Shown here in pieces: positions 2,721-56,667 of a DNA stretch of 64,000 bases. Where the stretch lies: contig CAYXDO010000015.1 of assembly GCA_964463485.1 (NCBI GenBank), forward strand, positions 34,259-98,258, written 5' to 3'. Numbering within the stretch: the stretch's first letter is position 1; each line of letters starts with the position of its first letter. The position numbers and the translations under genes were made by a program. Under the pieces are notes generated by a model. It did no database searches. It saw only the letters and a program-made list of their open reading frames with translations, and was not told the origin of the DNA. Origin of the DNA: an uncultured Myxococcales bacterium (GTDB taxonomy: Bacteria; Myxococcota; Kuafuiibacteriia; Kuafuiibacteriales; Kuafuiibacteriaceae).

Positions 2721-2771
2721 CGAAGTCAGCGAGTCTTCGAACGAGTTGCTGCGAACCAGGGTGCGACAAGC

Positions 2772-3899
2772 TCATTCTCGGCCTGCGAGCGAGCTCAGGA
2801 CCAAATCGTACCGCGCCGAGACATGATCGAGCCCGTACGTACTCACAGCCCGCTGGCGCGCGGCGAGGCCCAGGCGACGACGTAGTCCTTCATCCTTCGA
2901 GAGCGCCCGGAGGACGGTTCCGAGCTCGGAGACTTCTGGGGTGACGACGAGGCCCGTCGAGTCATGATCGATCAAGCTGGCGATCCCCGGTGCGTCAGCT
3001 CCCACGCAGGCACAGCCACAAGCCATCGCCTCAATCAGGGCCTTGGAGTTCCCTTCTCGCTTGGACAAAATGACAAAGACTCGGGCCGCGTTGAGCAGCT
3101 CGGGGAGCGACTGGTTCTCGACGCGAGCGATGAACTCGACCGGCACGCCGCGCGCACGTGCGAGGGCGCGGAGGCGCGTCTCGGCCTCGCCGGTGCCTAC
3201 GATGGCCGCGCAGAGCCCGGTCCCGGCCAAGGCTTCGATCAACAAATCGTGACGTTTGTGATCGTCGAGTCTACCCACCGACACCACGTCATGGCGCGGC
3301 AAGGCGGGGCGCGGCCGAAACAAGTCGGTGTCGACGAAATTGGGCACGACGTGGATGATACGCGGTCCGAGACCGTAGCGGACTCTCGCGAACTCAGCCA
3401 ACTCCGCGGTGGGCAGAATACACTCGGCAGCGGCCCGATGGACGAACCGCTCTTCGAGGATGATTCGCTTCGCTCGCAGTGAGTCATCATTGCGAAGGGT
3501 GAACGCGTCGCCGAGCAGGTTGCCCGAGCGGGCCACGAGCGGAGCTCCCCAGATCTTGGCGGCGATCACGGCTGGGAGGCCGCCGTGGGCTTGGTTCGTC
3601 ATGATCACATGGGGGCGTTCGGAGGGTCTCGGAGGCTTGAGCCACGGGATGAGGAGGCCGTAGGCCGTAGACCAAGCTTTTGGGAGCACGAACGGCCATT
3701 GGGGTACGATGAGTCCCTCGAAACCGCCCGCGGGGACATAGGGAAGGCGGTCGAAGGTGTAGATCGCCACGCGCCAACCTCGCTCGCCGAGCGCGCGGTA
3801 AAGGGCGAGCTCACGGGAGAGGGAACCCACGCGTTCCCAGGTGCGCAGGCCGCGGCCGGTGGTCAGAAACACGGCGAGCCGCTTTTCCCTCGGGCGCAC
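2772..3899 (-). CDS. Glycosyltransferase family 1 (GT4-like, GT-B fold)
   Basis: 375-aa ORF. C-terminal EGNSKALIEAMACGCACVGADAPGIASLIDHDSTGLVV is a typical GT1 E-x7-E region. Converges on the 3' end of the upstream + gene. Confidence 0.8.
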   Translation of the reverse strand: MRPREKRLAVFLTTGRGLRTWERVGSLSRELALYRALGERGWRVAIYTFDRLPYVPAGGFEGLIVPQWPFVLPKAWSTAYGLLIPWLKPPRPSERPHVIMTNQAHGGLPAVIAAKIWGAPLVARSGNLLGDAFTLRNDDSLRAKRIILEERFVHRAAAECILPTAELAEFARVRYGLGPRIIHVVPNFVDTDLFRPRPALPRHDVVSVGRLDDHKRHDLLIEALAGTGLCAAIVGTGEAETRLRALARARGVPVEFIARVENQSLPELLNAARVFVILSKREGNSKALIEAMACGCACVGADAPGIASLIDHDSTGLVVTPEVSELGTVLRALSKDEGLRRRLGLAARQRAVSTYGLDHVSARYDLVLSSLAGRE

Positions 3900-3915
3900 T
3901 TTCGACTCTTCTCTG

Positions 3916-4767
3916 CTACCGACGTCTCGCGGAGAAATAGCCCCACACCGCGCCGGTCGCGGTGGCGGCGGCGAGGGCGAGGTGACCGATCGCGAGGCTG
4001 GGCTCCATGGAGGCCGAGTTGGTCTGTGACGCGAGCCCGACTCTATCGATCCCTCTCGCGGTCAGCGAGCGGAGCGACGTACCGTGCAGCGCGACCGAGC
4101 GGCCGCAGCCGTATCCAACACCAATGGCCTTCTCCAAAAGCTGCCTTGGAGAACGGCGAGACGGGTGCTCCACCACGACGTCGTCCCGGTAGGCGATCGC
4201 AAAACCGAAGCTCGCGGCCCGCCGACCGATTTCTGCGTCTTCTTCGTACTTGCTGAGTCGCTCGTCGAAGCCACCCGCACTCGTGAGGACTTCCCTCCGC
4301 ACGAACAAATTTGCCGTTGCTCCGAATCCTTCGCGCACATATCTTTCTTGCCGAAGGAAACGCGAGCGGTCGAGGCGCTCGGTGTACGTGGGTGGGTCGC
4401 CGGTCGAAATGACGATCCGACCGGCAACGCGCGGAGAGTCAGCCACTGCTGCGACCCCTCGTTCCAGCCAGTCAGGGCGAGGCCGGCAATCAGCGTCCGT
4501 GAATGCGACAATTTGACCCGTCGAGCTCGTCCAGCCCGTGTTTCTAGCTGCGGCGACATTTCCGCCCCCAACTCTTCGAATGACTCGGAAAGGACGAGAT
4601 GCGCGATCGAAGAGCTCTTCGGGATGGTCTTCAGACCCATCGTCGACGACGATCACTTCGAAGTCGTCGCGCGGAAGCGTTTGGGTCTCGAGAGCTCCGA
4701 TCAGATCCGGGAGGAGTGCTCGACCATTTCTAACGGGGACGACGACGGAGATCCTCGCAGCCTTCAT
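3916..4767 (-). CDS. Glycosyltransferase family 2
   Basis: N-terminal ISVVVPVRNGRALLPDLIGALETQT...FEVIVVDDGSED is a GT2 DXD-type signature. 16 nt downstream gap to the GT1 gene on the same strand. Confidence 0.8.
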   Translation of the reverse strand: MKAARISVVVPVRNGRALLPDLIGALETQTLPRDDFEVIVVDDGSEDHPEELFDRASRPFRVIRRVGGGNVAAARNTGWTSSTGQIVAFTDADCRPRPDWLERGVAAVADSPRVAGRIVISTGDPPTYTERLDRSRFLRQERYVREGFGATANLFVRREVLTSAGGFDERLSKYEEDAEIGRRAASFGFAIAYRDDVVVEHPSRRSPRQLLEKAIGVGYGCGRSVALHGTSLRSLTARGIDRVGLASQTNSASMEPSLAIGHLALAAATATGAVWGYFSARRR

Positions 4768-4832
4768 GTCACCTACTCTCGAACGGTCCTACTCGAGGAG
4801 CCGTGGACGTCCAGTCCTAACAGAAGTCGCTG

Positions 4833-5963
4833 GTGTTGGGCGAGAGGGGCTCGCTAGGAGTCGCGAAGCCCAGGCCGGCGACCGTTCCTTCGCCGGGTCA
4901 GCCATGCTACTCTTTCGCGGTGCAGGTTCTCATCTACGGGGCCGGGTCGATAGGCAATCACCTCGCCTTCGCATGCAGAGAGAGGGACTGGGAAGTCACC
5001 GTCGTCGATGTGGACAGTGCCGCCCTGGAGAGGATGCGGAGCGAAATCTATCCCAAGAGGTACGGCGCGTGGGACCCTGCGATCCGCCTGCAGCTCGGGG
5101 AGGAGGCCGCGGGGGCGGACTTGGTCATCGTCGGGACTCCGCCCGATTCCCACCTCGAATTGGCCGAACGCGCTTTGCGCCTGCGGCCTAGAATCGTGCT
5201 CATCGAGAAGCCGTTGTCGGTTCCGTTTTCCGACTTCAGCGTGGTCGAGCGGCTCGCGCGGGAAACGGGCACTCGCGTTCTGGTAGGTTACAATCATCTC
5301 CTTTGCCGGAATACGAGACACGTCGAGCAGTTGCTTGCCGAGGGTGCGATTGGAGCGCCTATCACGATTCGGGTGAGCTGGGTCGAGTCGTGGGTCGGAA
5401 TCCTGAGGGCCCACCCATGGCTCGCTGGCCCCGAGGCTTCCTACTTGGGAAACTGGGAGCGGGGAGGCGGCTCGCTCTGCGAGCACTCCCACGGGTTGAA
5501 CCTCTTTCAACATTTTGCGCGAACTCTTGGGTTTGGCGAAGTCGAGCTCGTGAGTGCGTCTTTCGACTTCGTCGAGCAGCCGGGTTCTTCGTACGATCGG
5601 ATCGCGCAGCTTCATCTCAGGACCGAAGGCGGGTTGACCGGGCTCGTCACTCAGGACGTGGTTCAAGATCCGCCGGAGAAGAGACTTACGATCGTCGGTG
5701 CGGACGGTGTGCTGAGTTGGTACGGCGCGCGTCCCGACTCGACCGACGGGGTCGTGCTCGAGTCTCGAGGCCGCCGGGAGGAGCGGACTTTCGTCCGATC
5801 GCGCCCGGACGACTTTCGCGGGGAGATCTCACATGTGGCTGACGTCCTAGCGGACCGTGAGCTCGAATCGCCGCTCTCGTTGGAGCACGGTATTCGGACC
5901 ATGAAGGTCATCGACGGAGCGTTCCGAAGCGCGCGCGAGCGCCGCTCGGAGGGGCTTCGATGA
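4833..5963 (+). CDS. Gfo/Idh/MocA-family NAD(P)-dependent oxidoreductase. Start is GTG at 4833 or possibly GTG at 4920.
   Basis: Rossmann motif VLIYGAGSIGNHLA, then VGTPPDSHLELAERAL...IVLIEKPLS typical of Gfo/Idh/MocA. The stop overlaps the next gene's start (ATGA at 5960-5963). Confidence 0.65.
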   Translation: MLGERGSLGVAKPRPATVPSPGQPCYSFAVQVLIYGAGSIGNHLAFACRERDWEVTVVDVDSAALERMRSEIYPKRYGAWDPAIRLQLGEEAAGADLVIVGTPPDSHLELAERALRLRPRIVLIEKPLSVPFSDFSVVERLARETGTRVLVGYNHLLCRNTRHVEQLLAEGAIGAPITIRVSWVESWVGILRAHPWLAGPEASYLGNWERGGGSLCEHSHGLNLFQHFARTLGFGEVELVSASFDFVEQPGSSYDRIAQLHLRTEGGLTGLVTQDVVQDPPEKRLTIVGADGVLSWYGARPDSTDGVVLESRGRREERTFVRSRPDDFRGEISHVADVLADRELESPLSLEHGIRTMKVIDGAFRSARERRSEGLR

Positions 5964-7492
5964 CACGCTTCGCTTTCGACCCGCTCTTCGTTTTCGACTT
6001 GGCGAACAACCATCAAGGAAGCCTGGACCACGGGCTGAGGATCGTGTCCGCCATTGGCGAGGTGGTGCGAGGCGAAGGGGTTCGGGCAGCGCTCAAGGTT
6101 CAACTCCGCCACCTCGAGAGCTTCATTCACCCGGCAGCTCGGGGCTCGAAGGAGAACCGCCACGTCGAGCGGTTTTTGAGCACGGCGCTCTCTGGCGAGG
6201 ATTTCGGAAGACTCATCGCTGCGGTCAGGACTGCCGGTCTGATTCCGATGGCGACTCCGTTCGACGAGAAGTCGGTGGACTCGTTGGAAGAGCTCGGTGT
6301 CGAGGTCGTCAAGATCGGAAGTTGCTCGGCGACGGACTGGCCGTTGATTCGCCGGGTCTGCGCCTCAGGCCGGCCGGTCATCGCCTCGACTGGCGGCATG
6401 TCGCTGATCGACATTGACCGGCTCGTGGCGACGTTCACAACGCACGACGTGGAGTTCGCGCTCATGCACTGTGTTTCGATTTATCCGACTCCTGACGACG
6501 CGTTGAGGTTGAATCAGATCGACGTCCTTCGGGCTCGCTATCCTTGGATCACGGTGGGCTTTTCGACGCACGAGACGCCGACGAATCTCACCGCCGTTCA
6601 GCTTGCGTATGCGAAAGGTGCCCGGATTTTCGAGCGGCACGTCGGCCTGCCCGCCGCGGGCATCGTGCTCAACGCCTACTCGTCGACGCCCGAACAAGTC
6701 CGCGACTGGATTCGCGCGCACGAGCACGCGCGAGCGATGTGTGGAGGTACGAGGCGAGCGCCCTCACCCCTCGGCGAGCTGGAGTCGCTTCGCTCCTTGA
6801 TGCGAGGTGTGTTCGCGAGCAGACCCATCGCTCGCGGCCAAACGATCGCGCGAGACGACGTGTTCTTCGCGATGCCCCTCACGGCTGGACAGCTGAGTTG
6901 TTCTCAGTGGACCGAGGGACTGACCGCCGATGGCGATTATGAACAGCTTGCGCCGCTGTCGTTGAAGCTCGCGGAGCGCGAGAAGACGCGAGAACAACTC
7001 GTCTCCGAGATTCTGCTGCAGGTGAAGGGAGCGCTGAGTAGCGCGCGCATTGCCGTCAATCGCGACGCGAGCTTCGAGATCTCGCACCACTATGGGCTCC
7101 AACGTTTTCGAGAGTTTGGAGCAGTGATCGTCACTTGCGTGAACCGGCAGTATTGCAAGAAGCTGCTCGTGCTGCTGCCTCGGCAGAAGCATCCCTATCA
7201 CATGCATCGAACCAAGGAGGAGACGTTCCAGCTCCTCGCAGGAGATCTCGAGCTCGAGCGCGACGGGACACCCATCACCCTTCGACCAGGTGACACGGCG
7301 CTCGTGGGTCCCGGCGTCTGGCACAAGTTTCACACCCTTGGGGGCGCGGTGATCGAGGAGATCTCCACGACGGACTCACCCAACGACTCGGTGTACGAAG
7401 ACTGGCGAATCAACTCGCTCGCGCCGGCCGAACGCAAGACGTCCGTGCGCGGTATCGAAACGAATCTCGAACAGCCCGAGCTTTCCGAGTAG
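5960..7492 (+). CDS. N-acylneuraminate (nonulosonic acid) synthase family protein: NeuB-like TIM barrel, SAF domain and an extra C-terminal cupin domain
   Basis: N-terminal VFDLANNHQGSLDHGLRIVSAIG resembles the NeuB/PseI/SpsE IAEIGxNHNG motif. A mid-region SAF-like segment (ARGQTIARDDVFFAMP). The last ~150 aa (HMHRTKEETFQLLAGDLELERDGTPITLRPGDTALVGPGVWHKFHT) is cupin_2-like. Confidence 0.7.
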   Translation: MTRFAFDPLFVFDLANNHQGSLDHGLRIVSAIGEVVRGEGVRAALKVQLRHLESFIHPAARGSKENRHVERFLSTALSGEDFGRLIAAVRTAGLIPMATPFDEKSVDSLEELGVEVVKIGSCSATDWPLIRRVCASGRPVIASTGGMSLIDIDRLVATFTTHDVEFALMHCVSIYPTPDDALRLNQIDVLRARYPWITVGFSTHETPTNLTAVQLAYAKGARIFERHVGLPAAGIVLNAYSSTPEQVRDWIRAHEHARAMCGGTRRAPSPLGELESLRSLMRGVFASRPIARGQTIARDDVFFAMPLTAGQLSCSQWTEGLTADGDYEQLAPLSLKLAEREKTREQLVSEILLQVKGALSSARIAVNRDASFEISHHYGLQRFREFGAVIVTCVNRQYCKKLLVLLPRQKHPYHMHRTKEETFQLLAGDLELERDGTPITLRPGDTALVGPGVWHKFHTLGGAVIEEISTTDSPNDSVYEDWRINSLAPAERKTSVRGIETNLEQPELSE

Positions 7493-7495
7493 ATC

Positions 7496-8206
7496 GTGTT
7501 CTCTAGCAAGCGAACGTTGGTCGTAGTCCCGGCGAGGGGTGGGAGCCAAGGGATCCCGCTCAAGAACCTCAAGATCGTCGGCGGGCGGTCACTTTTGGCA
7601 CGAACCGGCGAGGTCGTTTCGCAGCTCGATTTCGTCGATCGCGCGGTCTGCTCGACGGATCATCCGCGCATCGCCGAGGAAGCTCGCGCGGTCGGTCTCG
7701 AGACTCCGTTCGTGAGGCCACAGACTCTCTCGGGGCCGCTCGTCTCAGACGCCGAAGTGCTCGAGCACGCGCTACGCGAGGTCGAGCGGCAGGAGGGCGC
7801 CGAGTACGATCTGGTGGTCATGCTGCAGCCGACGTCGCCCTTGCGTCGCGCCGAAGACGTGACGGGCACGGTGAAGATGCTGGTCGAAGGCGGCTACGAC
7901 GCGGTGTGGACGGTGAGTCTGACCGATCCAAAGCACCACCCCCTCAAGCAGCTCATCATCGAAGGTGACGCCCTCGATTATTATGATGCGGAGGGAGCCC
8001 AGATCATCGCACGCCAACAACTCACTCCTGTATACCATCGGAATGGAGTTGCCTACGCCATCTCGCGTGGCTGCTTGCTCGAACGGCGAAGCATCAAGGG
8101 GTCGAGAACCGGCGCGATGATCGTCGAAGCTCCCGCGATCAGCATCGACACCGAGAGTGACTGCGACTTTGCGGAGTGGATCCTCTCTCGGAGGAGCTCC
8201 CGTTGA
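7496..8206 (+). CDS. Acylneuraminate cytidylyltransferase family (CMP-nonulosonic acid synthetase, NeuA/KdsB-like)
   Basis: N-terminal LVVVPARGGSQGIPLKNLKIVGGRSLL matches the NeuA PARGGSKGIPxKN signature. 236 aa, typical for a stand-alone NeuA domain. Begins 4 nt after the NeuB-like stop. Confidence 0.8.
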   Translation: MFSSKRTLVVVPARGGSQGIPLKNLKIVGGRSLLARTGEVVSQLDFVDRAVCSTDHPRIAEEARAVGLETPFVRPQTLSGPLVSDAEVLEHALREVERQEGAEYDLVVMLQPTSPLRRAEDVTGTVKMLVEGGYDAVWTVSLTDPKHHPLKQLIIEGDALDYYDAEGAQIIARQQLTPVYHRNGVAYAISRGCLLERRSIKGSRTGAMIVEAPAISIDTESDCDFAEWILSRRSSR

Positions 8207-8214
8207 TTCCGGAG

Positions 8215-9543
8215 ATGGCGCGCCGAAAGGCCGAGAGCGCCAAGCGCCGGGTGGGTGAGCGCGCGCTCGGCGTGGCTGCCAGGGCTCGTCGGGCCAGGGA
8301 GACCGCGTTGCTCCTGAGGGCCTTGATTCGACCCATCACACCTCGGCGCGGGTCGAACGCGATCAGGATCCTCGTGCTGCCGGCAAATGGGTTTCTGGAG
8401 GACATGCTGGAGGTCGCGGCGAGCGACCCTCGGATCGAGCTCCATGCGCTCTCGCGGACCGCGGTGAAGGCCGTTGCTTCAGCCTTTCTCTCTCCTCGGG
8501 TCAATGACTTCACGTATGGGTCTCCGGACGCGGCCGATCGGCAGGGTATGCGGGCGTATCGCGAGTTTCTCGTCGAGGTGCTCCTTCGAATGCCTTCGGA
8601 GTTGAGGTTCCATGCAGTGGCGAGCGGCAATTTTGCCTACTATGCGGAGCAGGAGCTCGCCGCAGCGTTCGAGGCCTGTGGAGTTCCGTTCGTCGTGCTT
8701 TTGAAGGAGTGTCTCAACACCCCCGGTCTCGAGCGGTTTTGGGAGAGAGTCTATCGTGAGTGGCGCCGACCGTTTGGCGGCCGAAAAATCCTCGTGTACA
8801 ACGAAGGGACTCGGGGGTTGCTCTTGCGCTCGGGTGTTGCGCCGAGCGAGCGCATCTCGGTGGTAGGGATGCCGCGGCTCGATCGCCAACATCGGGACCG
8901 GTCGGGAGGGATGTCCGCCGCACAACTCTTGTTCCTCGTCTTTGGGCCTCGAACAGGGTTGCCGGACATTCCTTCGAGCCGGCGGGACCTCCCCTCAGAG
9001 CTCAGGTACACGGGATGGCGAGACCTCGCGAGGGAGTGCCATCGCGCGGTGCTCGACGTCGCGGTCGAAGCGCCCGAGTCGAGGATCATCGTCAAGGCCA
9101 AGGAAGTCTTGGCCCACCAAAGGGAGGTGGAGGAACACTACCAGGGTCGTCGCGAGCTTCCGCCGAACGTCGAGGTGATCTCGGTGGGCGAGGTGTTCGA
9201 GCCCTTGAGGCGCAGCAGGATCGTGGTGGGTTTCAAATCGACGGCTTTGCTGGAGGCGATGGCGGCCGGCAAGGCGGTCATGGTGCCTCGCTTCGCGGAA
9301 GCGAGCGACCCGGCCTTGGCGGACTTCCTGTTGGATTTGGGAGAGTATGTCGAGTATCCGGAGTCAGCGAGCGCGTTCCGAGCTTCGATGCTACAGCACT
9401 TACGCGGGCAGCGGACGGCGCCGGGCGCTGCCGAATGGGCCGCGCTGGCAAGGCCGGTGTTGGAGCGATGGCTCGGCAACGCCGACGGTCGCTCGGCGGA
9501 GCGAGCTCGGGCCGAGCTCTTGGAGCTGAGTCGTGTCGCATAG
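8215..9543 (+). CDS. Hypothetical protein of about 442 aa. Candidate GT-B-like sugar transferase or modification enzyme acting on the CMP-nonulosonate product.
   Basis: ATG at 8215 is preceded by GGAG. ORF-track start 8176 overlaps the NeuA-like gene. No motif I can name. The position, wedged with overlaps between NeuA-like and GT2, suggests the same operon. Confidence 0.5.
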   Translation: MARRKAESAKRRVGERALGVAARARRARETALLLRALIRPITPRRGSNAIRILVLPANGFLEDMLEVAASDPRIELHALSRTAVKAVASAFLSPRVNDFTYGSPDAADRQGMRAYREFLVEVLLRMPSELRFHAVASGNFAYYAEQELAAAFEACGVPFVVLLKECLNTPGLERFWERVYREWRRPFGGRKILVYNEGTRGLLLRSGVAPSERISVVGMPRLDRQHRDRSGGMSAAQLLFLVFGPRTGLPDIPSSRRDLPSELRYTGWRDLARECHRAVLDVAVEAPESRIIVKAKEVLAHQREVEEHYQGRRELPPNVEVISVGEVFEPLRRSRIVVGFKSTALLEAMAAGKAVMVPRFAEASDPALADFLLDLGEYVEYPESASAFRASMLQHLRGQRTAPGAAEWAALARPVLERWLGNADGRSAERARAELLELSRVA

Positions 9544-10405
9544 TGTCTCGGTCGTGGTTCCGACCGCGAACAGACGACCGCACGAAATTCTCCGAGCCGT
9601 CGACAGCGTGTTGTCGCAGTCTTCGGGCCGAGCGCTCTCGGGCGTCGAGCTCATCGTCGCGAACAACTCGTCCGGGCGGCTCAACCGCGCCATCGAGGTG
9701 CTCGCAGAGTCCGGCGCGCTGCAGGTCGTGGACGCCTCACGGGTGACCGGTGTCAGTCACGCTCGAAACGCGGGCGCTCGTCTGGCGCGACACGAAGTCC
9801 TCGCATTCTTGGATGACGATGACTGGTGGTCCCCGTCTTTCCTCTCAGACTTGCTGCTCGAGCTCGACGCACACTCCGCCGATTTGTGCTCCAGCGGGTT
9901 TTGGGTTTGGACGGAGAGAGGTAAGAAGCCCGGTCCGATGCTCGAATCACCCACGACGGCGGCGCGGTTCTTGAGTGAGAATCCGGGCATCACGGGCTCG
10001 AACTTCATCATTCGTCGGAGCGCCTTCGAGGCGCTCGGCGGCTTCGACGAGGCCCTGTTCGCGTCCAACGATGGGGACTTCATGATTCGCTTCCTGGAGT
10101 CCGGAGAGTACGCATGGCGAGTCGTGATGGCGAGGCTGGTGAACGTAGACCGTACGCCACACGACCAGGTCTCCGTGCCCACGCCAAGACGAGTCCAGAG
10201 CATGCGGAGATTTCAGTCCATCCACGGCGCCAAGATGGGCCCGCGGGTCCAGAGAGACTTCGAGTACCGCCTGGCCGTGTGCGAGGCCGCGAGCAACCGA
10301 TCCTATTGGGATTTGGTCGGGCTGATTCCCCGGCATCCTAGGTGGTCACGCCAGACACTCGGGTGGATCAAGAAGCTCGCGCTGGGCCGGCACTCGACGT
10401 TCTGA
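9533..10405 (+). CDS. Glycosyltransferase family 2
   Basis: MSHSVSVVVPTANRRPHEILRAVDSVLSQS...FLDDDDWW is a GT2 fold signature. Start overlaps the previous stop by 11 nt. Confidence 0.75.
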   Translation: MSHSVSVVVPTANRRPHEILRAVDSVLSQSSGRALSGVELIVANNSSGRLNRAIEVLAESGALQVVDASRVTGVSHARNAGARLARHEVLAFLDDDDWWSPSFLSDLLLELDAHSADLCSSGFWVWTERGKKPGPMLESPTTAARFLSENPGITGSNFIIRRSAFEALGGFDEALFASNDGDFMIRFLESGEYAWRVVMARLVNVDRTPHDQVSVPTPRRVQSMRRFQSIHGAKMGPRVQRDFEYRLAVCEAASNRSYWDLVGLIPRHPRWSRQTLGWIKKLALGRHSTF

Positions 10406-11456
10406 GCGGATCGCGGCTCAGACGTCTGGCGACCGCGTCAGCCATCGCCCGCTCCACGTTCACCGGACCCCCGATTTCGATCCAGCGGTCGAATTCTCGC
10501 CGATAATGAAAGCGAGCCTTCAGCGCCGTCGTGAGCCCGAAATGCACACCTTGATACTCCAACAACAATGGACGTTCTGGGCTTGGCCGACGATCGACGA
10601 TGATGTCGAGCGACGCGAAGGGCAGGTCGAGCTCCTTGGCGGCCTCGAAAGCGAAGTCGAGGATCGTTGCGGGGACCGGCAAGAACTCGAGCCTGCCGCC
10701 CCCGCTCGCCCGAAAGTCGCGCCGACGATTGCGGCGGTAGAGGCCGCACGCGACGTCGTCCCACAGAAGTACTTTCCAATCCCCTTCGCTGACGATGAGC
10801 TCCTGAGCGACGAGTCGCCCAACGGTATGCCGGCGCAGCGCTCGGTCGAGCGCCCGCCTGACGAGACCGCGACCGGGAAACGATGCCGGATCGGTGAGGA
10901 TTCGTCGCGCGGCCCGTCGCGCCTCGCTGGGCGTGCGCGCGAGGCTCACGCCGGAGGCCCCCCACCCAGTCGCGGTCTTCAACACGATGGGAAAGTCCGC
11001 ATCAGCCAAATAGCGATCGAGGTGACCGGAAAAGCCGAAGACTCGAGTCCGCGGGACGGGAATCTTGGAGCGCCCGAGACGGACGGCCTGGTAGACCTTG
11101 TCTTCGTGGGCGAGCATGTGCTCGAACGAAGGCAAGAGGACGACGCCTTGTCTCTCCAGGGCTGAGAGTATCGACCTGATGAAAGCCGAGTACTCTGGAC
11201 GCTGGCTCGTCGCGTACACGGCGGCGGAGGGCCGAGCTGTGGCAAGCTCGAACAACCGCGGATCATGGAGCCCTACCGAAACCGCTTCGAGCCCGTGCCC
11301 GTTCAAGCTCCCCTCGAGCTCCCGCAAGTCTAGCCCCTCGTTCGCGCCGATGCGTTGTGGCACCTGGCCTTTGAAGTCCGTGAGGATCAAGACCCGAGAG
11401 ATGGGTACGGATAGGCGAGGAGAGTCCACCGCCCGACGAATAACTCGACGCTTCAC
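10368..11456 (-). CDS. ATP-grasp domain protein (RimK/D-Ala-D-Ala-ligase-like). Start uncertain, probably GTG near 11456.
   Basis: FPIVLKTATGWGASGVSLARTPSEARRAARRIL is the ATP-grasp glycine-rich ATP-binding region, followed by WKVLLWDDV...YRRN. The full ORF to 11660 would overlap the divergent GT2 start at 11475, so a shorter N-terminus is likely. Confidence 0.55.
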   Translation of the reverse strand: MKRRVIRRAVDSPRLSVPISRVLILTDFKGQVPQRIGANEGLDLRELEGSLNGHGLEAVSVGLHDPRLFELATARPSAAVYATSQRPEYSAFIRSILSALERQGVVLLPSFEHMLAHEDKVYQAVRLGRSKIPVPRTRVFGFSGHLDRYLADADFPIVLKTATGWGASGVSLARTPSEARRAARRILTDPASFPGRGLVRRALDRALRRHTVGRLVAQELIVSEGDWKVLLWDDVACGLYRRNRRRDFRASGGGRLEFLPVPATILDFAFEAAKELDLPFASLDIIVDRRPSPERPLLLEYQGVHFGLTTALKARFHYRREFDRWIEIGGPVNVERAMADAVARRLSRDPLRTSSAGPARAS

Positions 11457-11474
11457 CGATGAGAAGGGGGCCGC

Positions 11475-12407
11475 GTGAATCCGACGCTCTCGATTGTCGT
11501 TCCCGCGCGAAACGTCGCCCGGTGGATCGACGAAGCCGTTCGAAGCGCGCTCGGCTCGAGGCTCGCCTGCGAAGTGCTCGTGGTGGACGATGGCTCGAGT
11601 GATGATACTTGCTGCAGAGTCGAGCAGATTCGCGATTCGCGGGTGAGGGTCGTTCGGCAACGTCCGTTGGGACTCTCATCGGCTCGAAATCGAGGGATCA
11701 CCGAGGCCACCGGGCAATTCATTAGCTTCTTGGACGGCGATGACTGCGTGCTCGCGGCAGAGCTCGATCGAGCGGTGAGTCGCCTGGCGCGTACGGAAGC
11801 CTGGGTGATTTATGGAGAGACCATGATCATGGACTCTCTTGGCAGGGTCTTCGGAGCACGTCCGCCTCCCCTGTTTGCGCCCCGACCGGAGGGTGACGTG
11901 CTCCGGGCGCTCCTCGCTCGCAATTTCATCGCCAGCACGGGAGCCACCGCCATCCGGAGGATCGCGTTCGAGTCGGTGGGTCGGTATGCGCCCGAGCTCG
12001 TCCGGGCGCAGGACTGGGAGATGTGGTGCCGACTCGCAGCCAAGGGTAGGTTCCTTTACGCGGGTCCTCGGCCCATACTCCTCAGGAGAGTCAGAGTCGG
12101 AAGCGTGAGTGCGACGATCGGACTCTCCGCTGCCGAGATGCTTCGTACGATCGAGGTCGTGTTTTCGAATGCGGACGTGGTGGGCGCGATTCCGCGCGAG
12201 CGACTTCGCACGCTGGAGCGCATGCAGATAGCGTTTGCCCACGTAGTCGCGGGAACGGAGTGCTTGAGGGCGCGGCGGTTCGATGAAGCCCGCCGCGCCC
12301 TCGCCCGCGCCCTCGCGATGGATCCGACGCGCCCAGAGGCCGGCGTGCTGCTTCTCGCGGCGCTCGCGCGCCGACTGCCCTCCTCGCTGGAACGCAGACT
12401 CAAGTAG
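11475..12407 (+). CDS. Glycosyltransferase family 2 with C-terminal TPR-like helical tail
   Basis: MNPTLSIVVPARNVARWIDEAVRSAL...VLVVDDGSSDDT...FLDGDD are GT2 motifs. C-terminal Ala/Arg-rich helical region. Confidence 0.75.
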   Translation: MNPTLSIVVPARNVARWIDEAVRSALGSRLACEVLVVDDGSSDDTCCRVEQIRDSRVRVVRQRPLGLSSARNRGITEATGQFISFLDGDDCVLAAELDRAVSRLARTEAWVIYGETMIMDSLGRVFGARPPPLFAPRPEGDVLRALLARNFIASTGATAIRRIAFESVGRYAPELVRAQDWEMWCRLAAKGRFLYAGPRPILLRRVRVGSVSATIGLSAAEMLRTIEVVFSNADVVGAIPRERLRTLERMQIAFAHVVAGTECLRARRFDEARRALARALAMDPTRPEAGVLLLAALARRLPSSLERRLK

Positions 12408-12464
12408 TCGCAGCGGCTTCTCCTTGCACCGCAGCTGCCTCTCGGGTGATCGTCCTCGCTGCTG

Positions 12465-13457
12465 GTGCTCATCTCCATCGTCATACCGATGCTTGACGAA
12501 GCGGGGAGCCTGCCGAGCCTCCACGCGGAGCTCGTCAAAGTCATCGAATCGAGTGGTCTCGAGGCGGAGGTCATCTTCGTCGACGACGGAAGCACGGACG
12601 CGACGTGGCGAGAGCTCGAAGCCATGACCCGACAGGATTCCAGAGTCGTGGCCCTTCGCCTGCGGCGCCGATTCGGCAAGGCCGCTGCGCTCTCGGCGGG
12701 CTTTGCGTTGTCGCGAGGCGAGCTCATCGTGACCTTGGATGGAGATGGCCAAGACGACCCGATGGAGGTTCCTCGGTGCTTGCGCGCGATCGATGAGGGC
12801 CTCGACGTCGTGGTCGGGTGGAAGCGCGATCGAAGGGACCCATTTACCAGGGTCCTCGCCAGCCGAATATTCAACCTCACGGAGAGCCTGCTCAGCGGGT
12901 TGCGGCTTCACGATCATAACTCGGGGCTGAAGGCGATGCGTCGCGCAGTGGTGTCGGAGGTGCGGTTGCACGGGGAGCTCCATCGCTTCATTCCCGCGCT
13001 CGCTCATGCTCGCGGCTTCCGGGTGGGAGAGATTCCGGTGAATCACCGGCCGCGTAAGTTTGGAAAATCCAAGTACGGCTTGTCGCGGTACGTCTGGGGA
13101 CTCCTCGATCTATTGATGGTCCGCCTGCTCGTGGGTTATCGCAGCCGGCCCCAACACGTGTTGGGTCTCTTGGGCTTCGGCTCCTTCTTCGCTGGCGGGA
13201 CCGGGCTGAGTTACCTCGCGGCCACGTGGATCGCCCGTTTTTATCGAGCGGACGAATACCTTCCGCTCGCGTCACGGCCACTGACTTTGTATTCGGTGGC
13301 CGCCCTCGTCTTCGGCGCCCAGATGCTGTCCTTGGGATTTCTCGCGGGACTCCTGCCCGTCTACAGCTCCCGAGATGAGGATCATTACAGCATCAAGGGA
13401 GTCATCGACTCCCGCCGGCCCCTCGACGTGTCCGCGCAGGAGAAGAGAGGAACGTGA
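12465..13457 (+). CDS. Polyprenyl-phosphate glycosyltransferase (GT2, DPM1/ArnC/GtrB-like) with C-terminal TM helices
   Basis: MLISIVIPMLDEAGSL...VIFVDDGSTDATW...VTLDGDGQDDP is the DPM1/ArnC signature. Two C-terminal hydrophobic helices typical of bactoprenol-P sugar synthases. Confidence 0.8.
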   Translation: MLISIVIPMLDEAGSLPSLHAELVKVIESSGLEAEVIFVDDGSTDATWRELEAMTRQDSRVVALRLRRRFGKAAALSAGFALSRGELIVTLDGDGQDDPMEVPRCLRAIDEGLDVVVGWKRDRRDPFTRVLASRIFNLTESLLSGLRLHDHNSGLKAMRRAVVSEVRLHGELHRFIPALAHARGFRVGEIPVNHRPRKFGKSKYGLSRYVWGLLDLLMVRLLVGYRSRPQHVLGLLGFGSFFAGGTGLSYLAATWIARFYRADEYLPLASRPLTLYSVAALVFGAQMLSLGFLAGLLPVYSSRDEDHYSIKGVIDSRRPLDVSAQEKRGT

Positions 13458-15286
13458 ATTCGAGAGAGCCCGGAGTGACCAACTCAGCTCGCCCGGGACT
13501 TCTCGAGGCGATGGGCGCGACCTGGTCGATGCTAGCCGTCAAGGATCGGCGTCGCCTGCTCGGACTCGTGGGGCTGCTCGTGATCGGCGCTGGACTGGAG
13601 GCGCTCGGAGTTGGATCGATCTTGCCGATCGTCCTCATGATCACTCGAGGTGAGTCAGCGGCTGCCCCGGGCTTGTCGCCCAAGCTCTACGCGGTGCTCG
13701 AGCGACTCACTTCGGGAGTCGGTCCTCCTGCGGTGGCGCTGCTCGTAGTCGGCGTCTTCGTTGTCAAGAACGGCTTTCTCTCCCTGACCGCGTACCTGCA
13801 ATTTCGTTTCATCAATCGCTTGCAGGTAGAGGCGGGAGAGGAGTTGTTTCGCCTTTACATGAGTCTGCCGTACGTCGATCATCTGGGTTCGAACCCGGCG
13901 CATCTGCTGAGGGACATCGACTCGGACGTCAAGCTCGCCCATCAAAAGGTGCTGCGCGCGATGATTCAGCTCCTCACGGAGGCCTTCGTTCTCTCTGCCA
14001 TCACGCTCCTGCTCGCGCTGCTCGATCCAGCCGTCGCGATCGCGGCGTTTGGGGTTTGTGGGGCGATGGGTTGGGCGTTTCACAGACTGATTAGGCGAAA
14101 GAGCGCTGGCTTGGGGCTTGCGGAGCGTCGGGCTCGGGGTCGAATCAACGAGCTCGTCCTGCAAGGGTTGCACTCCCTTCGTGAGACGAAGGTTCTCGGA
14201 CGCGAGGGCTTCTTCATCGCCGGTTTCGCGGAGGAGGCTCGACTGTTTTCGCGCGCGCACCTTTTCAACCAAATGGCGACGACGACCCCGTACTACGTTC
14301 TCGAGACGGTCGTGGCGGCAAGTCTGCTCCTGGTCCTGTGGTTGGGTCTGGTTCGGGGGTATGAGTTGTCGACGCTGGCTCCGGTCTTGGCTGTGTTCGT
14401 GGTCGCCGCGCTCCGCCTCGCCCCTTCGCTCAATCGAACGCTCGGAGCGGTCGAGTCGATGAGGTTCCACGGCCCCTCCGTGCGGGCGCTGTTGGCGAAT
14501 CGCTCGCGGGCACGTGCGAGTATCCTCGTCGAGGTGACGATGGGCGAACGAATCGAGCTGACGAATTCCATCCAGCTCCGAGGAGTTTCGTTCTCCTATC
14601 CCGACTCGCGTCGCCGCGCGCTCACCGAAGTCGAGCTTACCATCCCTCACGGCACGATTTTCGGCCTCGTCGGCCCCACCGGTAGCGGTAAGACCACGAC
14701 GGCCGATCTCGTACTGGGGCTGCTGCGCCCTCAAAGTGGGGAAATCCTCGTCGACGGGAAAGACATCTTCCGCGGCCTCGAGAGTTGGCGGGATCAGGTC
14801 GCGTATGTACCGCAGACCGTCTATCTCACGGACGACACGATTCGTCGAAACGTCGCCTTCGCCCTGCCGCCCGAGCGAATCGACGAGGCCGCGGTACTCA
14901 GGGCGCTGGAAGGCGCGCGGCTCCTCGACTTCGTACGCTCGCTCCCCAAGGGGCTCGAAACCGTCGTGGGAGAAGCGGGAGCTAGGCTCTCGGCGGGGGA
15001 GCGTCAGCGGATTGGAATCGCCCGCGCGCTGTATCGACCGGGCCGACTCCTCGTCCTAGACGAGTCCACCTCGGCGCTCGATTTGGAAACCGAGCGGCAA
15101 ATCTGCGAGACGATTTCGAGCCTACGCAAGGATCGGACGATCCTGATCATCGCTCATCGGCCCAGCACGATCGAGTCATGCGACCAGGTCTGCCTGCTAT
15201 CAGAAGGTCGTATCATGCGGATCGGAGCTCCACGAGAGGTGATGGGCGAAGGTTTCGGAGTGGCCTCGGCTGGGGCGCTTTCATGA
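13454..15286 (+). CDS. ABC exporter, fused permease plus ATPase (MsbA/PglK-like). Candidate lipid-linked glycan flippase.
   Basis: Six-TM N-terminal half. Walker A GPTGSGKTT, ABC signature LSAGERQRIGIARAL, Walker B LLVLDESTSALD. GTG start overlaps the upstream stop (GTGA). Confidence 0.85.
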   Translation: MNSREPGVTNSARPGLLEAMGATWSMLAVKDRRRLLGLVGLLVIGAGLEALGVGSILPIVLMITRGESAAAPGLSPKLYAVLERLTSGVGPPAVALLVVGVFVVKNGFLSLTAYLQFRFINRLQVEAGEELFRLYMSLPYVDHLGSNPAHLLRDIDSDVKLAHQKVLRAMIQLLTEAFVLSAITLLLALLDPAVAIAAFGVCGAMGWAFHRLIRRKSAGLGLAERRARGRINELVLQGLHSLRETKVLGREGFFIAGFAEEARLFSRAHLFNQMATTTPYYVLETVVAASLLLVLWLGLVRGYELSTLAPVLAVFVVAALRLAPSLNRTLGAVESMRFHGPSVRALLANRSRARASILVEVTMGERIELTNSIQLRGVSFSYPDSRRRALTEVELTIPHGTIFGLVGPTGSGKTTTADLVLGLLRPQSGEILVDGKDIFRGLESWRDQVAYVPQTVYLTDDTIRRNVAFALPPERIDEAAVLRALEGARLLDFVRSLPKGLETVVGEAGARLSAGERQRIGIARALYRPGRLLVLDESTSALDLETERQICETISSLRKDRTILIIAHRPSTIESCDQVCLLSEGRIMRIGAPREVMGEGFGVASAGALS

Positions 15287-16266
15287 GTAGCGGGAGCCGT
15301 CCGCTTCGGCCTCAGTCGGGTCGGGATGAGAGCTCAACTCCGACCGCGCCGTCGAATCCGGGAAACGGAGGCCAGGTCGCCCTGAGTGTCGTGATTCCAG
15401 CATACCAGATGCGCGACGAGCTCGCGTCGTGCCTCGATGCGTTGATGTCGGAGCGCTCCGACGCGGGAGTTTCTTTCGAGGTGATTGTCGTCGAGAGCTC
15501 TGGAGATTCGACCGCCGCCGACCTGGCCGATCGATTCACCGAGGTGACTTTCGTGGACGTTGGCGCCCGCGCGTTCGCAGGAGAGGCTCGGAACATCGGC
15601 GCACGGCGCGCGAGAGCCCCTATCATCGCTTTTCTCGACGCGGACTGTATCATCGAGCCAGGCTGGGTCGAGGCCACGATTCGGTCCCATGAGTCCGTGG
15701 ACGCGATCGTCGGCGGAGCCGTGCTTCCGCGGCCGCCGATTTCGGCGAGCGGCCTCCTGCTCTTCGCGATCGAATTCTCGGAGTTCCTTCCTCGGGGGAA
15801 GCGTCGCGAGATGCGCTTCGTTCCTTCGTATAGCATGTCGCTTCGCTCGTCGACGATGGCGGCGACTGGCGGGTTCAGTGCCGAGCTCGAAGTCTCCGAA
15901 GATGTCGCATTTTGTGCAGCCGCGCGACGCGCGGGCCGACGCGTGTTGTTCGAGCCTTCCGTTCGCGTCCGTCACGTCGACCGATCTGGGTTCCAACGAG
16001 CGCTCGGGAGGCTTCACAAGCTGGGGGAGGGGTCGGGGCGAGCGAGAGTGTTGCATGAGCTTCACGGGAGCTTCATCGCGCGTTTCAGACCACTCGTACC
16101 CTTGTTGGTTCCCTACCGATTCGCCATGATTTTCGGGCGCGTCGCCGCGAGTGACCACGGTATCGAGCGGGCGCTCGCGTACGCGCTCGGCGCTCCGATC
16201 GTGCTCCTCGGCTTGGGCTCGTGGGCGCATGGGTTCTGGGTCGGGATCAAAGAGGCGAGTCCTTGA
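15283..16266 (+). CDS. Glycosyltransferase family 2
   Basis: VALSVVIPAYQMRDELASCLDAL...FEVIVVESSGD...FLDADC. ATG at 15283 overlaps the ABC-gene stop (ATGA). ORF-track start 15178 lies inside the ABC gene. Confidence 0.7.
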   Translation: MSSGSRPLRPQSGRDESSTPTAPSNPGNGGQVALSVVIPAYQMRDELASCLDALMSERSDAGVSFEVIVVESSGDSTAADLADRFTEVTFVDVGARAFAGEARNIGARRARAPIIAFLDADCIIEPGWVEATIRSHESVDAIVGGAVLPRPPISASGLLLFAIEFSEFLPRGKRREMRFVPSYSMSLRSSTMAATGGFSAELEVSEDVAFCAAARRAGRRVLFEPSVRVRHVDRSGFQRALGRLHKLGEGSGRARVLHELHGSFIARFRPLVPLLVPYRFAMIFGRVAASDHGIERALAYALGAPIVLLGLGSWAHGFWVGIKEASP

Positions 16267-17729
16267 AACGGCTCCCGCTGGCAGACCGGGTCACTCGCGC
16301 GTTGCTGGTGATGTCACTGGTCGTGCTGGTCGGCCGGGTGCTCAGCGTGCCGGGCCCCTTCGGTGCCAACGACGTCTCCAGATGGGCCACCATTCGGTCC
16401 TTGGTCGACTTCTCGACGTTCGCAGTCGGTCAGCGCATTCGGGCGCCGGACGGAAGACTGGTCGAAGACAAGCCTCAGGGGACCATCGATCTCGTGTTGG
16501 ATCCGAGGACTGGATTCTTCTACTCGAGCAAGCCTCCCCTCCTCTCGACGATCATGGCCGCGGAGTACTGGGCGCTCCATCGCGCCCTGGATTGGCGCAT
16601 CGATACTCATGAGCCTCAGATCATGAAGGTTCTGCTTCTGACGTTCAACGTCACGGCGCTCACGACCTATCTCCTCGTCTTCGCGAGATTTCTCGAAGAT
16701 TTGAAGATCGTAGGTTGGAGTCGGGCGGTGCTCATCGGGCTCGCGGGGCTCGGAACCTTCGTCACGACCTTCGCCACGTCGATCACGAATCATGTCCCCG
16801 CCGCCGTATCGACATTGCTCTCTGCATACTGCTTCCGCAACGCCTGGGTTGGCGGAGCGCGGTTGGCTTATTTCGGGGCGGGTCTCTTCGCTGGCGTCGC
16901 CGCGAGCCTGGAGATACCAGCCGTGATTTTTTTGGGCGTCGTCGGGATCGTTCTCGTCGTCAGGAGTCCGCTGCGAACGTTTGGGCTATACTTCCCGGCG
17001 GCCTTGATTCCGATGGGGGGGTTTTGGCTCACGAACAGCCTGTCGTTTGGCGACCCTTTCTTCTTCTACCGACATCCGAAAGACTGGTTTGCGTACCCGG
17101 GTGGGTACTGGGACGCGCCGAGCGGCGTCGATCTCTTCGACAAGGGCCCGGTCGAATACTCGTTTCATTATCTCCTCGGACACCATGGGATCATCTCGCT
17201 CACACCCATGTTTTTCTTGGCGATCGTGGGTCTGGTCCGGACCAACCAAGCCATTCCGCGAGCTCGGTCTTGGATGGTCGCCGGGCTGATGTGCCCGGCC
17301 CTGGTCGGACTTTTGGCCCTGGGTCGCGTCGACGTGCCCGTGCCGACGGTCGTATCGATGGCGCCTTCCCTCCTGGTTGCCGGGCTCTGCTTCGTCTTGC
17401 CATGGAGATGGTTCGAGCGGGCCGGCGCGGATCCGGCAGGGTTCGATCGAGCCTTCTCGCGAGTCACGATCGCCTGCAGCCTCGTCGTCGCTTCGTTCTA
17501 CGTCTCTGGCACCTCGAACTACGGCGGGATCGCGGCCGGACCCCGCTGGTTCATGTGGCTCATGCCGCTGTGGATTGTATTCATGGGCTCGGGGACCGCG
17601 GAGTTGCTCGACTCCAAGCGGGGCCGATTCGTGCTCTCGGCGCTCCTCGCATTCTCTGCCTACTCGGCGCTCAGCCCAGGTGTGAGTGCGTGGACCAATC
17701 CCTGGATCTACTCCTTTTTCTTCCGGTGA
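16263..17729 (+). CDS. Polytopic membrane protein with at least 10 predicted TM segments. Putative GT-C-type glycosyltransferase or glycan polymerase.
   Basis: Highly hydrophobic 480-490-aa ORF. A candidate TTG start at 16263 overlaps the GT2 stop (TTGA). Follows polyprenyl-P GT2, ABC exporter and GT2 in one coupled run. Confidence 0.5.
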   Translation: MKRLPLADRVTRALLVMSLVVLVGRVLSVPGPFGANDVSRWATIRSLVDFSTFAVGQRIRAPDGRLVEDKPQGTIDLVLDPRTGFFYSSKPPLLSTIMAAEYWALHRALDWRIDTHEPQIMKVLLLTFNVTALTTYLLVFARFLEDLKIVGWSRAVLIGLAGLGTFVTTFATSITNHVPAAVSTLLSAYCFRNAWVGGARLAYFGAGLFAGVAASLEIPAVIFLGVVGIVLVVRSPLRTFGLYFPAALIPMGGFWLTNSLSFGDPFFFYRHPKDWFAYPGGYWDAPSGVDLFDKGPVEYSFHYLLGHHGIISLTPMFFLAIVGLVRTNQAIPRARSWMVAGLMCPALVGLLALGRVDVPVPTVVSMAPSLLVAGLCFVLPWRWFERAGADPAGFDRAFSRVTIACSLVVASFYVSGTSNYGGIAAGPRWFMWLMPLWIVFMGSGTAELLDSKRGRFVLSALLAFSAYSALSPGVSAWTNPWIYSFFFR

Positions 17730-26273: not shown

Positions 26274-26285
26274 CTGGAGCTCCGT

Positions 26286-43845: not shown

Positions 43846-43961
43846 GACGAAAGGCGCGGAACCCTAGAAATGGCGTCGGGTTGTGTCAATCGAGAAGCCC
43901 AATCTCCCGTCGGACAAGAGGCCCAGGGCCGGAACCGCACGGGAAGTGCTATACCTCGAAT

Positions 43962-56457: not shown

Positions 56458-56667
56458 TGCTCCCACTCTAGGGGCTCGACCACGCGGGAGGCCAGTCGCC
56501 AGTTGGGGGATGGGACCGCGACGTACCCGAACAAACCCGCCGGCAAAGTGGCGAGGTTCATCGGCGAGCGTAGCGCGCACCGAACGATCTGTAGCTTCCA
56601 AGGCACGAAAGACGTAGCCACCGCAGAACGACCAGCGCAGCCGGCCCCTTTCGAACGCGTACGAACG

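Follow-up and report, generated by a model that had tools for sequence, protein, structure and literature searches.

This study concerns a window of 64,000 nucleotides (64 kb) from contig CAYXDO010000015.1 of an uncultured Myxococcales bacterium (assembly GCA_964463485.1, positions 34,259–98,258 of the forward strand), in which all coordinates below are given unless a different contig is named. The open reading frame (ORF) at 5960..7492 (+ strand, ATG start, 510 aa) encodes a single polypeptide in which a NeuB-type synthase, a degenerate SAF (antifreeze-like) domain, and a cupin resembling sugar isomerases are fused. With moderate confidence, we propose that this protein is a bifunctional enzyme of ulosonic acid biosynthesis, in which the cupin would make an aldose from a ketose and the NeuB part would condense the aldose with phosphoenolpyruvate (PEP). 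The biosynthesis of ulosonic acids is itself familiar, so the case is not categorically new; the novelty lies in the class of isomerase that is fused to the synthase. Searches of the open-access literature (subscription journals fell outside them) returned nothing on NeuB-cupin fusions or on cupins acting as arabinose-5-phosphate isomerases in place of KdsD.

The Fusion as a Single Polypeptide

The encoded protein is identical to NCBI MBI4818517.1 from a metagenome-assembled genome (MAG) of Deltaproteobacteria, where it is named "N-acetylneuraminate synthase family protein". A Shine-Dalgarno sequence (GGAGG) is located 8 nt 5′ of the ATG, and the start codon overlaps the stop codon of the preceding gene as ATGA. 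The first-pass annotation of the window had described a tri-domain NeuB-SAF-cupin ORF, quoting the motif PGDTALVGPGVWHKFHT, which corresponds to residues 442–458. This description holds, as Pfam recognizes NeuB (PF03102) and Cupin_2 (PF07883), together with Lyx_isomer (PF07385), and the SAF domain is seen when the structural model is superposed on PDB entry 3g8r. The same annotation had stated that characterized NeuB and PseI enzymes end at about 340–350 aa and that the present ORF carries an additional C-terminal domain. Solved NeuB and PseI chains indeed measure 349–351 aa and the chain of Bacillus subtilis SpsE 385 aa, so the C-terminal extension of ~170 aa is genuinely extra.

Relatives of the fusion were sought in one genome per species; 282 genomes were confirmed, and the best 80 loci were fetched. 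The ORFs of these loci were clustered and representatives were annotated; locus counts in the following refer to those 80. The search for other NeuB-cupin fusions, which the first-pass annotation had recommended, therefore returned many. All of the 120 best database matches listed are 486–544 aa long, are 53–60% identical to the fusion, and share its layout of ~500 aa with NeuB and Cupin_2 (115 of them also match Lyx_isomer).

The possibility that a frameshift or an overlooked stop had merged an ordinary NeuB gene with a distinct cupin gene, for which a drop of the GC content at third codon positions (GC3) had been named beforehand as a sign, was ruled out. In detail, GC3 is continuous over the junction (0.65–0.88 in every 40-codon window), the other two reading frames are closed by 17 and 5 stops, and the AlphaFold model of the full protein (mean predicted local distance difference test, pLDDT, 91.2; predicted template modeling score, pTM, 0.72) is confident across the junction. 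Moreover, a single ORF is found in all 120 listed matches, in the 282 genomes with a relative, and in all 80 fetched loci. Three metagenomic contigs (L088, L089, and L093) do carry NeuB and cupin in separate, overlapping ORFs, but L088 and L093 belong to heavily fragmented gene calls and the pair in L089 overlaps by 25 nt, and an assembly or annotation artifact is considered extremely improbable. The single-polypeptide fusion of NeuB and isomerase-type domain is real.

The Cupin Is of the D-lyxose/D-mannose Isomerase Type

The C-terminal domain (6962..7459, + strand, residues ~335–500) consists of N-terminal helices and a cupin barrel. The Cupin_2 match covers residues 404–461 (E 7.8e-11), and the Lyx_isomer match reaches 31.4 bits against a cut-off of 20.8 (E 1.4e-7), with no single stretch passing alone. 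Residues ~335–500 align in two segments to the D-lyxose isomerases of Thermofilum (TsLI, 7nzo) and B. subtilis (2y0o), and the alignment with 7nzo spans the catalytic core of that isomerase (chain residues 29–197 of 204).

Structural comparison leads to the same family. The isolated domain was modeled separately (pLDDT 90.7), and in the Foldseek search D-lyxose isomerases are its top six matches, with template modeling scores (TM) of 0.66–0.71 over 167–180 columns and 26–27% identity to chains of 171–183 residues. With the full model, D-lyxose isomerases are again the best matches of the cupin domain (TM 0.70, ~175 of 178 residues). The ranking continues from these to Escherichia coli Z5688, then L-ribose isomerases, and then small archaeal phosphomannose isomerases.

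The active site is conserved as well. In TsLI, the metal and substrate contacts are K62, H75, H77, K86, E88, H143, E156, and D163, with H75, H77, E88, and H143 as ligands of Mn, and activity is reported to be lost on mutation of the residues equivalent to K86, E156, and D163 (PMC8378251; the numbering of the PDB chain equals that of the paper plus 24). Seven of these eight contacts map to K401, H414, H416, K419, E421, H455, and E467 of the fusion, all of which are invariant in an alignment of 64 sequences. The motif H414-x-H416-x-x-K419-x-E421 (7199..7222, + strand), equivalent to H75, H77, K86, and E88 of TsLI, has its partners K401, H455, and E467 close by and is kept in 77 of the 80 genomic loci. 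The remaining three fusions, from Bacteroidota and Ignavibacteria (L061, L062, and L069), have QxH in place of HxH, that is, the first metal-binding His is replaced by Gln, and the same replacement occurs in the proteins P0148, P0195, P0230, and P0234, which include several stand-alone cupins. Because the metal and catalytic residues are invariant and the motif is so widely retained, the cupin domain is predicted to be a catalytically competent homolog of aldose-ketose isomerases.

The resemblance to the D-lyxose/D-mannose isomerases (TsLI, 7nzo–7nzq; B. subtilis YdaE, 2y0o; E. coli Z5688, 3kmh) thus includes the fold of the whole domain (TM ~0.7), the H, H, E, H residues that bind Mn, and the catalytic Lys and Glu. 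Those isomerases work on free sugars as independent catabolic proteins, whereas the fusion cupin sits inside a biosynthetic enzyme, lacks two loops (of 6 and ~20 residues), and has an R492-K493 pair near the C-terminus. This pair is invariant in 64 of 64 aligned fusions and in eight of eight aligned stand-alone cupins, and it could form a phosphate site.

These matches also exclude an RmlC-like epimerase. The first-pass annotation had noted that cupins of sugar pathways are mostly epimerases and isomerases, with RmlC as its example, or metal-dependent modifying enzymes. The sugar-isomerizing type was supported, in the form of a full-length homolog of D-lyxose/D-mannose isomerases with invariant ligands and Lys/Glu, but the RmlC-like type was not.

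The Synthase Part

The N-terminal part (5972..6754, + strand, residues ~5–265) is a NeuB-type TIM barrel of a PEP-condensing synthase, identified by Pfam and PDB matches. Pfam NeuB covers residues 44–263 (E 1.6e-39, 136.2 bits vs. a cut-off of 22.1), and the PDB matches include 3g8r (E 4.7e-88) and Neisseria meningitidis NeuB (E 8.5e-27). Residues H204, E225, and H227 are invariant in the 64-sequence alignment; they align with the metal ligand His215, the catalytic Glu234, and the metal ligand His236 of N. meningitidis NeuB. The loop residues H57, H68, and R71 are invariant as well. Based on its intact metal and catalytic residues, this part is predicted to be a catalytic NeuB-family synthase.

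The barrel is followed by the degenerate SAF-like domain (6767..6952, + strand, residues ~270–331), which remains below threshold in sequence (PF08666, 19.4 bits vs. a cut-off of 21, E 0.0016). In structure, residues 1–331 of the model superpose on the NeuB and SAF domains of 3g8r with a TM of 0.93 over 331 columns (Foldseek), and the SAF region is also covered by the structural matches to NeuB and PseI. At the position of Arg314 of N. meningitidis NeuB, the residue addressed by deposited structures of R314A and R314K mutants, the fusion has Met305 ("FFAMP" vs. "WVKAP" of the R314A chain 4ipi), and this Met is found in at least 90% of the fusion family.

The fusion does not reach the equivalog cut-offs of TIGR03569 (N-acetylneuraminate synthase, 131.1 bits vs. 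399.65) or TIGR03586 (pseudaminate synthase, 113.2 bits vs. 340.25). These low scores, the replacement of Arg314 by Met, and the identity of the nearest solved relative argue that it is neither an N-acetylneuraminate (Neu5Ac) nor a pseudaminate synthase, and it is almost certainly not the former. That relative, 3g8r, is a structural-genomics entry from Chromobacterium violaceum assigned by name only ("probable spore coat polysaccharide biosynthesis protein E"). It is the closest solved relative of residues 7–320 (42% identity, TM 0.93), has the NeuB barrel with a SAF-like domain, and is likewise hydrophobic at the Arg314 position (AFP in 3g8r, AMP in the fusion), but at 350 aa it is without the cupin domain.

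The characterized N. meningitidis NeuB (1xuu) and Campylobacter jejuni PseI (8h2c) share with the fusion the fold, the PEP- and metal-dependent condensation chemistry with its His/His/Glu residues, and a cytidine monophosphate (CMP)-transferase gene next door. However, the fusion is just 21–25% identical to them and adds the isomerase domain. Their usual partner genes are also missing, as Pfam annotation of window positions 1–17729 revealed no NeuC, PseB/PseC-type, aminotransferase, or dehydratase genes.

Distribution and Conserved Neighborhood

The best 80 loci span more than 12 phyla. Carriers are found in Alphaproteobacteria, SAR116, delta-proteobacterial lineages, Lachnospiraceae, Verrucomicrobiota, Chloroflexota, Acidobacteriota, Planctomycetota, Bacteroidota, Cyanobacteria, Gemmatimonadota, and several lineages of the Candidate Phyla Radiation, with Lachnotalea glycerini DSM 28816, Anaeromicropila populeti 743A, Anaerosporobacter faecicola, Salinisphaera japonica YTM-1, and Xanthocytophaga flavus among the cultured ones. 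A library clustered at 50% identity yields, for the cupin domain alone, 74 representatives at E≤1e-30 and 851 at the looser E≤1e-3. A copy of the fusion with 47% identity is also present in a MAG of a Methanosarcinales archaeon (L063, 8001–9473), which suggests either an interdomain transfer or a binning error.

The conserved core of the loci is, in order, a Gfo/Idh/MocA oxidoreductase, the fusion, a HAD_2 phosphatase, and a CTP_transf_3 cytidylyltransferase. The oxidoreductase homolog is directly upstream of the fusion in 41–48 loci (median spacing −4 nt), the phosphatase is directly downstream in 24, and a cytidylyltransferase homolog occurs in 58–66. All four activities of a pathway like that of Kdo (3-deoxy-D-manno-oct-2-ulosonic acid) are encoded together in 24 of the loci; the window has the fused isomerase and synthase and the cytidylyltransferase. 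Co-occurring with the phosphatase, the oxidoreductase is missing in the clade of Lachnospiraceae and Bacteroidota.

In the window, the oxidoreductase gene (4833..5963, + strand, assigned by Pfam; its start may be 3′ of 4833) is translationally coupled to the fusion, and its matches in PDB and NCBIfam are distant only (inositol and free-sugar dehydrogenases). The fusion is followed by a CMP-ulosonate synthetase gene (7496..8206, + strand; CTP_transf_3, NeuA/PseF/KdsB-like by Pfam, NCBIfam, and PDB 1eyr with E 1.7e-21). With this CMP-transferase gene adjoining it, the fusion lies in a nonulosonate-style locus. Fourth in order comes a candidate ulosonate glycosyltransferase (8176..9543, + strand), with weak matches to TIGR04396 and to the BFO_1060 family of glycosyltransferases. 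A related glycosyltransferase cluster (cluster 7, 18 loci) matches BFO_1060_trans at 1.6e-11.

Such BFO_1060-like glycosyltransferases, S-adenosylmethionine-dependent methyltransferases (including TylF-like O-methyltransferases), and an ABC exporter are frequent accessory genes, and a KpsS/KpsC-like Capsule_synth protein appears in a few loci. In Lachnospiraceae, the fusion and the cytidylyltransferase are located inside flagellin glycosylation islands with flagellin and Maf genes. Maf flagellin glycosyltransferases can take Kdo and Neu5Ac as donor sugars, which is consistent with ulosonic acids other than pseudaminic and legionaminic acid on flagellins. Downstream of the fusion, L046, L054, L060, L066, and other Lachnospiraceae loci carry a set resembling TarI/TarJ/TarL (Glyphos_transf, an IspD-like cytidylyltransferase, and a zinc-dependent alcohol dehydrogenase), a hint that the flagellin glycan is decorated with ribitol phosphate.

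In five loci (L001, L003, L006, L024, and L031) a separate, full-length conventional NeuB stands beside the module, with NeuC in three and a further cytidylyltransferase in four of these loci. The presence of both side by side points to a different sugar for the module, which would be made straight from central metabolites. NeuC-type partner genes in the related loci accompany this second, conventional NeuB; the module itself comes with no NeuC, aminotransferase, or dehydratase gene and needs no amino-sugar genes. The one module HAD protein that was scanned (from L001) showed no match to the model of the phosphatase for the 9-phosphate of Kdn (2-keto-3-deoxynonulosonic acid).

Further Fusions and Stand-Alone Cupins

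The architecture extends beyond the layout of the window. P0137 is a single chain of 723 aa with NeuB, SAF, cupin, and HAD_2 domains, and P0195 (468 aa, N-terminally truncated) combines NeuB-cupin with a different HAD-like tail containing DxDxV. In P0148 (414 aa), a cupin of the same subfamily is joined to an N-terminal domain of thiamine pyrophosphate-dependent enzymes.

The subfamily also includes stand-alone cupins of 161–198 aa, with a Met start, the same invariant motifs, and 38–62% identity to the fusion domain. Gene contexts were checked for 12 of these proteins; many short stand-alone matches on contigs of 1–3 kb were left out as probably truncated fusions. On six contigs, the stand-alone cupin is found with kdsA: L081 (a Roseburia MAG, 7001–9515), L084 (7001–9506), L085 (3512–6017), L090 (6001–9850), L094 (5001–5982), and L095 (132–2669). 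The Roseburia-type stand-alone cupin is MCM1183104.1. The cupin gene, whose product is 38–44% identical to the fusion domain, overlaps kdsA by 8–32 nt in L081, L084, L094, and L095, and in L090 a gene for a flavoprotein like amine oxidase/UDP-galactopyranose mutase lies between them. The three kdsA genes scanned score 387–390 bits against the NCBIfam cut-off of 242.

A CTP_transf_3 (NeuA-like) cytidylyltransferase follows 3′ of kdsA in all five complete operons, that of L094 being cut by the end of the contig. A phosphatase gene comes next in L081, L090, and L095, and the one tested (L081) is of the KdsC type (TIGR01670, 132.7 bits vs. 106.95); in L084 and L085 this position is taken by an unannotated gene of 157 aa. 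From the cupin to the last gene of these operons, no other isomerase, and thus no KdsD of the SIS type, was called, so the cupin occupies the slot of KdsD. These Lachnospiraceae-type operons resemble a Kdo-like route of Gram-positive gut bacteria in which the cupin would be the isomerase.

Other stand-alone cupins are placed differently. P0155 adjoins a HAD protein of 467 aa with no synthase there, and P0283 is an orphan with uninformative neighbors. P0161 and P0302 are found with a pyridoxal phosphate (PLP)-dependent decarboxylase, an NDK-like gene, and a carbamoyltransferase, and L087 (4279–9474) and L092 (3227–8470) have the same three kinds of gene and ABC-2 transporter genes next to a stand-alone cupin. 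These loci look like a different pathway. A carbamoyltransferase is carried after the module by L089 as well.

Proposed Pathway and Its Alternatives

In the proposed pathway, the cupin would act as a metal-dependent aldose-ketose isomerase and convert a common ketose to the matching aldose, configured at C2 as the synthase requires. A phosphorylated ketose is probable, and the leading guess is the conversion of fructose-6-phosphate to mannose-6-phosphate. The NeuB barrel, capped by the SAF-like domain, would then condense the aldose with PEP, and this irreversible step would pull the unfavorable equilibrium of the isomerase. The product would be a non-amino 3-deoxy-2-ulosonic acid (or its phosphate), which would be Kdn-like if the substrate is a derivative of mannose. 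The HAD phosphatase, where encoded, would strip the phosphate, the adjacent cytidylyltransferase would form the CMP-sugar, and the neighboring glycosyltransferases and ABC exporter would put the sugar on a surface glycan, or on flagellin in Lachnospiraceae.

As D-lyxose isomerases take D-lyxose and D-mannose configurations (PMC8378251) and the NeuB family usually takes hexoses, the cheapest guess for the route is fructose-6-phosphate, mannose-6-phosphate, Kdn-9-phosphate, Kdn, and CMP-Kdn. A pentulose-5-phosphate substrate, giving an eight-carbon acid, is also possible. The oxidoreductase may modify the sugar before or after the condensation, in which case the product would not be plain Kdn. 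What the analysis shows is a real fusion with two conserved active sites and a conserved gene context, whereas the order of the steps, the phosphate on the substrate, and which compounds serve as substrate and product are inferred.

Two known pathways offer precedents. Similarly to the Kdo pathway (KdsD-KdsA-KdsC-KdsB), the module would follow a four-step logic of ketose-phosphate isomerization, PEP condensation, phosphate removal, and CMP activation, and stand-alone cupins of the subfamily are found in operons of kdsA and the cytidylyltransferase, most of them with kdsC and with no called KdsD. The module differs in having a cupin instead of a SIS-domain isomerase, a NeuB-type instead of a DAHP_synth_1 synthase, a HAD_2-type instead of a KdsC-type phosphatase, and an additional oxidoreductase; it works like the Kdo pathway without belonging to it. 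The Kdn-9-phosphate route of Bacteroides thetaiotaomicron and animals condenses mannose-6-phosphate with PEP, after which a phosphatase acts. Here the likeness lies in a NeuB-family synthase that takes the phosphate of a non-amino hexose, in the use of a HAD phosphatase, and in activation with CMP; that route differs in its KdsC-type phosphatase and in having no isomerase fused to the synthase. By analogy, chemistry like that of the Kdn-9-phosphate route is most plausibly what the module performs.

Several observations weigh against this proposal. A neighbor-joining tree separates the kdsA-linked cupins, as a clade of their own, from the clade fused to NeuB, and the KdsA proteins of the cupin-linked operons are 75–91% identical. 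The kdsA-linked cupins are effectively one lineage; therefore, their substrate need not carry over to the fusions. D163 of TsLI, the eighth contact, probably corresponds to the invariant D476, but the alignment around it is ambiguous. Nor does the simple scheme accommodate the tightly coupled Gfo/Idh/MocA oxidoreductase. A HAD phosphatase was not seen near the fusion in the Lachnospiraceae loci, and tblastn with eight members of the cluster located none of the module type in the whole 64 kb. The characterized D-lyxose isomerases act on free sugars, not on phosphorylated ones (PMC8378251), so that a phosphorylated route is proposed by operon analogy.

Part of this evidence would suit a scheme with free sugars, which we consider possible, though clearly unlikely as a whole. 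In this scheme a phosphatase, either the HAD protein or a housekeeping enzyme, would first free a ketose such as fructose or xylulose, the cupin would convert it to mannose or lyxose, and NeuB would make Kdn or an eight-carbon analog. The closest solved relatives of the cupin are isomerases of free sugars whose sugar-contact residues are kept (with the reservation on D163), and the window and the Lachnospiraceae loci are without an adjacent phosphatase. Bacterial NeuB and PseI enzymes, moreover, use unphosphorylated substrates, for example free N-acetylmannosamine in the case of NeuB. Yet members of this cupin subfamily occur coupled to KdsC and to KdsA, an enzyme that takes a phosphorylated sugar. 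Dephosphorylating a central ketose-phosphate ahead of the committed step would also be wasteful, and the invariant R492-K493 would suit a phosphate site. It is because of the association with KdsA and KdsC, the fused HAD domains, and this pair that a phosphorylated route is favored, albeit slightly, over one with free sugars.

A role of the cupin after the condensation, as an epimerase or isomerase of the ulosonic acid or a later intermediate, had been the idea of the first-pass annotation. The synthase-first order of the domains is compatible with it, and some cupins act on keto-deoxy acid sugars, KdgF being a weak structural match of the present domain (rank 48). However, the best matches in sequence and structure are aldose-ketose isomerases with the catalytic set intact, and a 2-keto-3-deoxy acid is without the aldose/ketose C1–C2 pair to be isomerized. 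In the kdsA operons, the cupin is the sole candidate for the missing isomerase step. The stand-alone cupins overlapping kdsA, together with the HAD domains adjacent or fused to NeuB-cupin, place the isomerase before the condensation, so that an extra epimerization after synthesis was not borne out and is now deemed quite improbable.

Slightly less credit still is given to a non-catalytic cupin, serving an ordinary NeuB-family synthase in sugar binding, regulation, or oligomerization: cupins often act as ligand sensors and a few members carry Gln for the first metal-binding His, but all 64 aligned fusions keep the metal and catalytic set unchanged, its motif persists in 77 loci of more than 12 phyla, the domain also stands alone in enzyme operons, and the pathway would have no other source of the aldose.

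Beyond the bifunctional enzyme itself, a wider proposal is put forward tentatively, as one we hold to be rather doubtful. The cupin subfamily may constitute a new class of sugar-phosphate isomerase that replaces KdsD, and the module of oxidoreductase, NeuB-cupin, HAD phosphatase, and cytidylyltransferase may make a CMP-ulosonic acid of new structure (e.g., a Kdn modified by the oxidoreductase, or a new eight- or nine-carbon acid). This acid would decorate surface glycans or flagellins in hundreds of species, from the Candidate Phyla Radiation to Lachnospiraceae and marine Alphaproteobacteria.

The Glycan Locus and the Rest of the Window

The module of the window is ringed by six more glycosyltransferases, an ATP-grasp gene, and an ABC exporter. 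On one side, it is flanked by GT4 and GT2 glycosyltransferases (2772..4767, − strand, by Pfam). The rest of the glycan locus (9533..16266) consists of four GT2 genes, the ATP-grasp gene on the minus strand, and the ABC exporter (13454–15286). The ATP-grasp gene (10368–11660, −) encodes a RimK-like ligase, lying among the glycosyltransferases on the opposite strand, and may add an amino acid to the acidic sugar.

At the edge of the locus, an ORF of 842 aa (192–2720, +) combines PPDK_N ATP-binding and PEP-utilizers mobile domains; it resembles PEP synthase and rifampicin phosphotransferase and could be a glycan-modifying phosphotransferase. The end of the locus (16221–20110) is formed by two large ORFs with almost no family assignment: one of 502 aa (+) with a weak match to the putative glycosyltransferases LA_3751/LA_3752, and one of 800 aa (−) with zero Pfam matches. 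The rest of the window includes an RND efflux pump with an outer-membrane factor (21742–27359, −), a CotH kinase-like protein (37545–39299, −), a Big_2 surface protein of 1609 aa (43881–48710, +), and a sigma-54 activator of 1401 aa fused to an AAA_16 ATPase and TPR (52612–56820, −).

Implications for Ulosonic Acid Biosynthesis

Acidic keto-sugars, such as sialic acids, Kdn, Kdo, pseudaminic acid, and legionaminic acid, shape the recognition of bacterial surfaces and flagella by hosts, phages, and immunity, and predictions of the sugars that a microbe displays draw on their genes. The fusion family is widespread and is publicly listed under a generic name that is probably misleading. As it is present in at least 282 species-level genomes, predictions of sialic acid that rest on the fusion are probably wrong. 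If the proposed pathway is true, the module would form a self-contained pathway that starts in central carbon metabolism and ends in a CMP-ulosonic acid, and it could be the missing bacterial pathway to Kdn or lead to a new sugar. In Gram-positive gut bacteria, a new class of isomerase would supply Kdo-8-phosphate synthase, and the fusion itself would represent a ready-made two-step biocatalyst.

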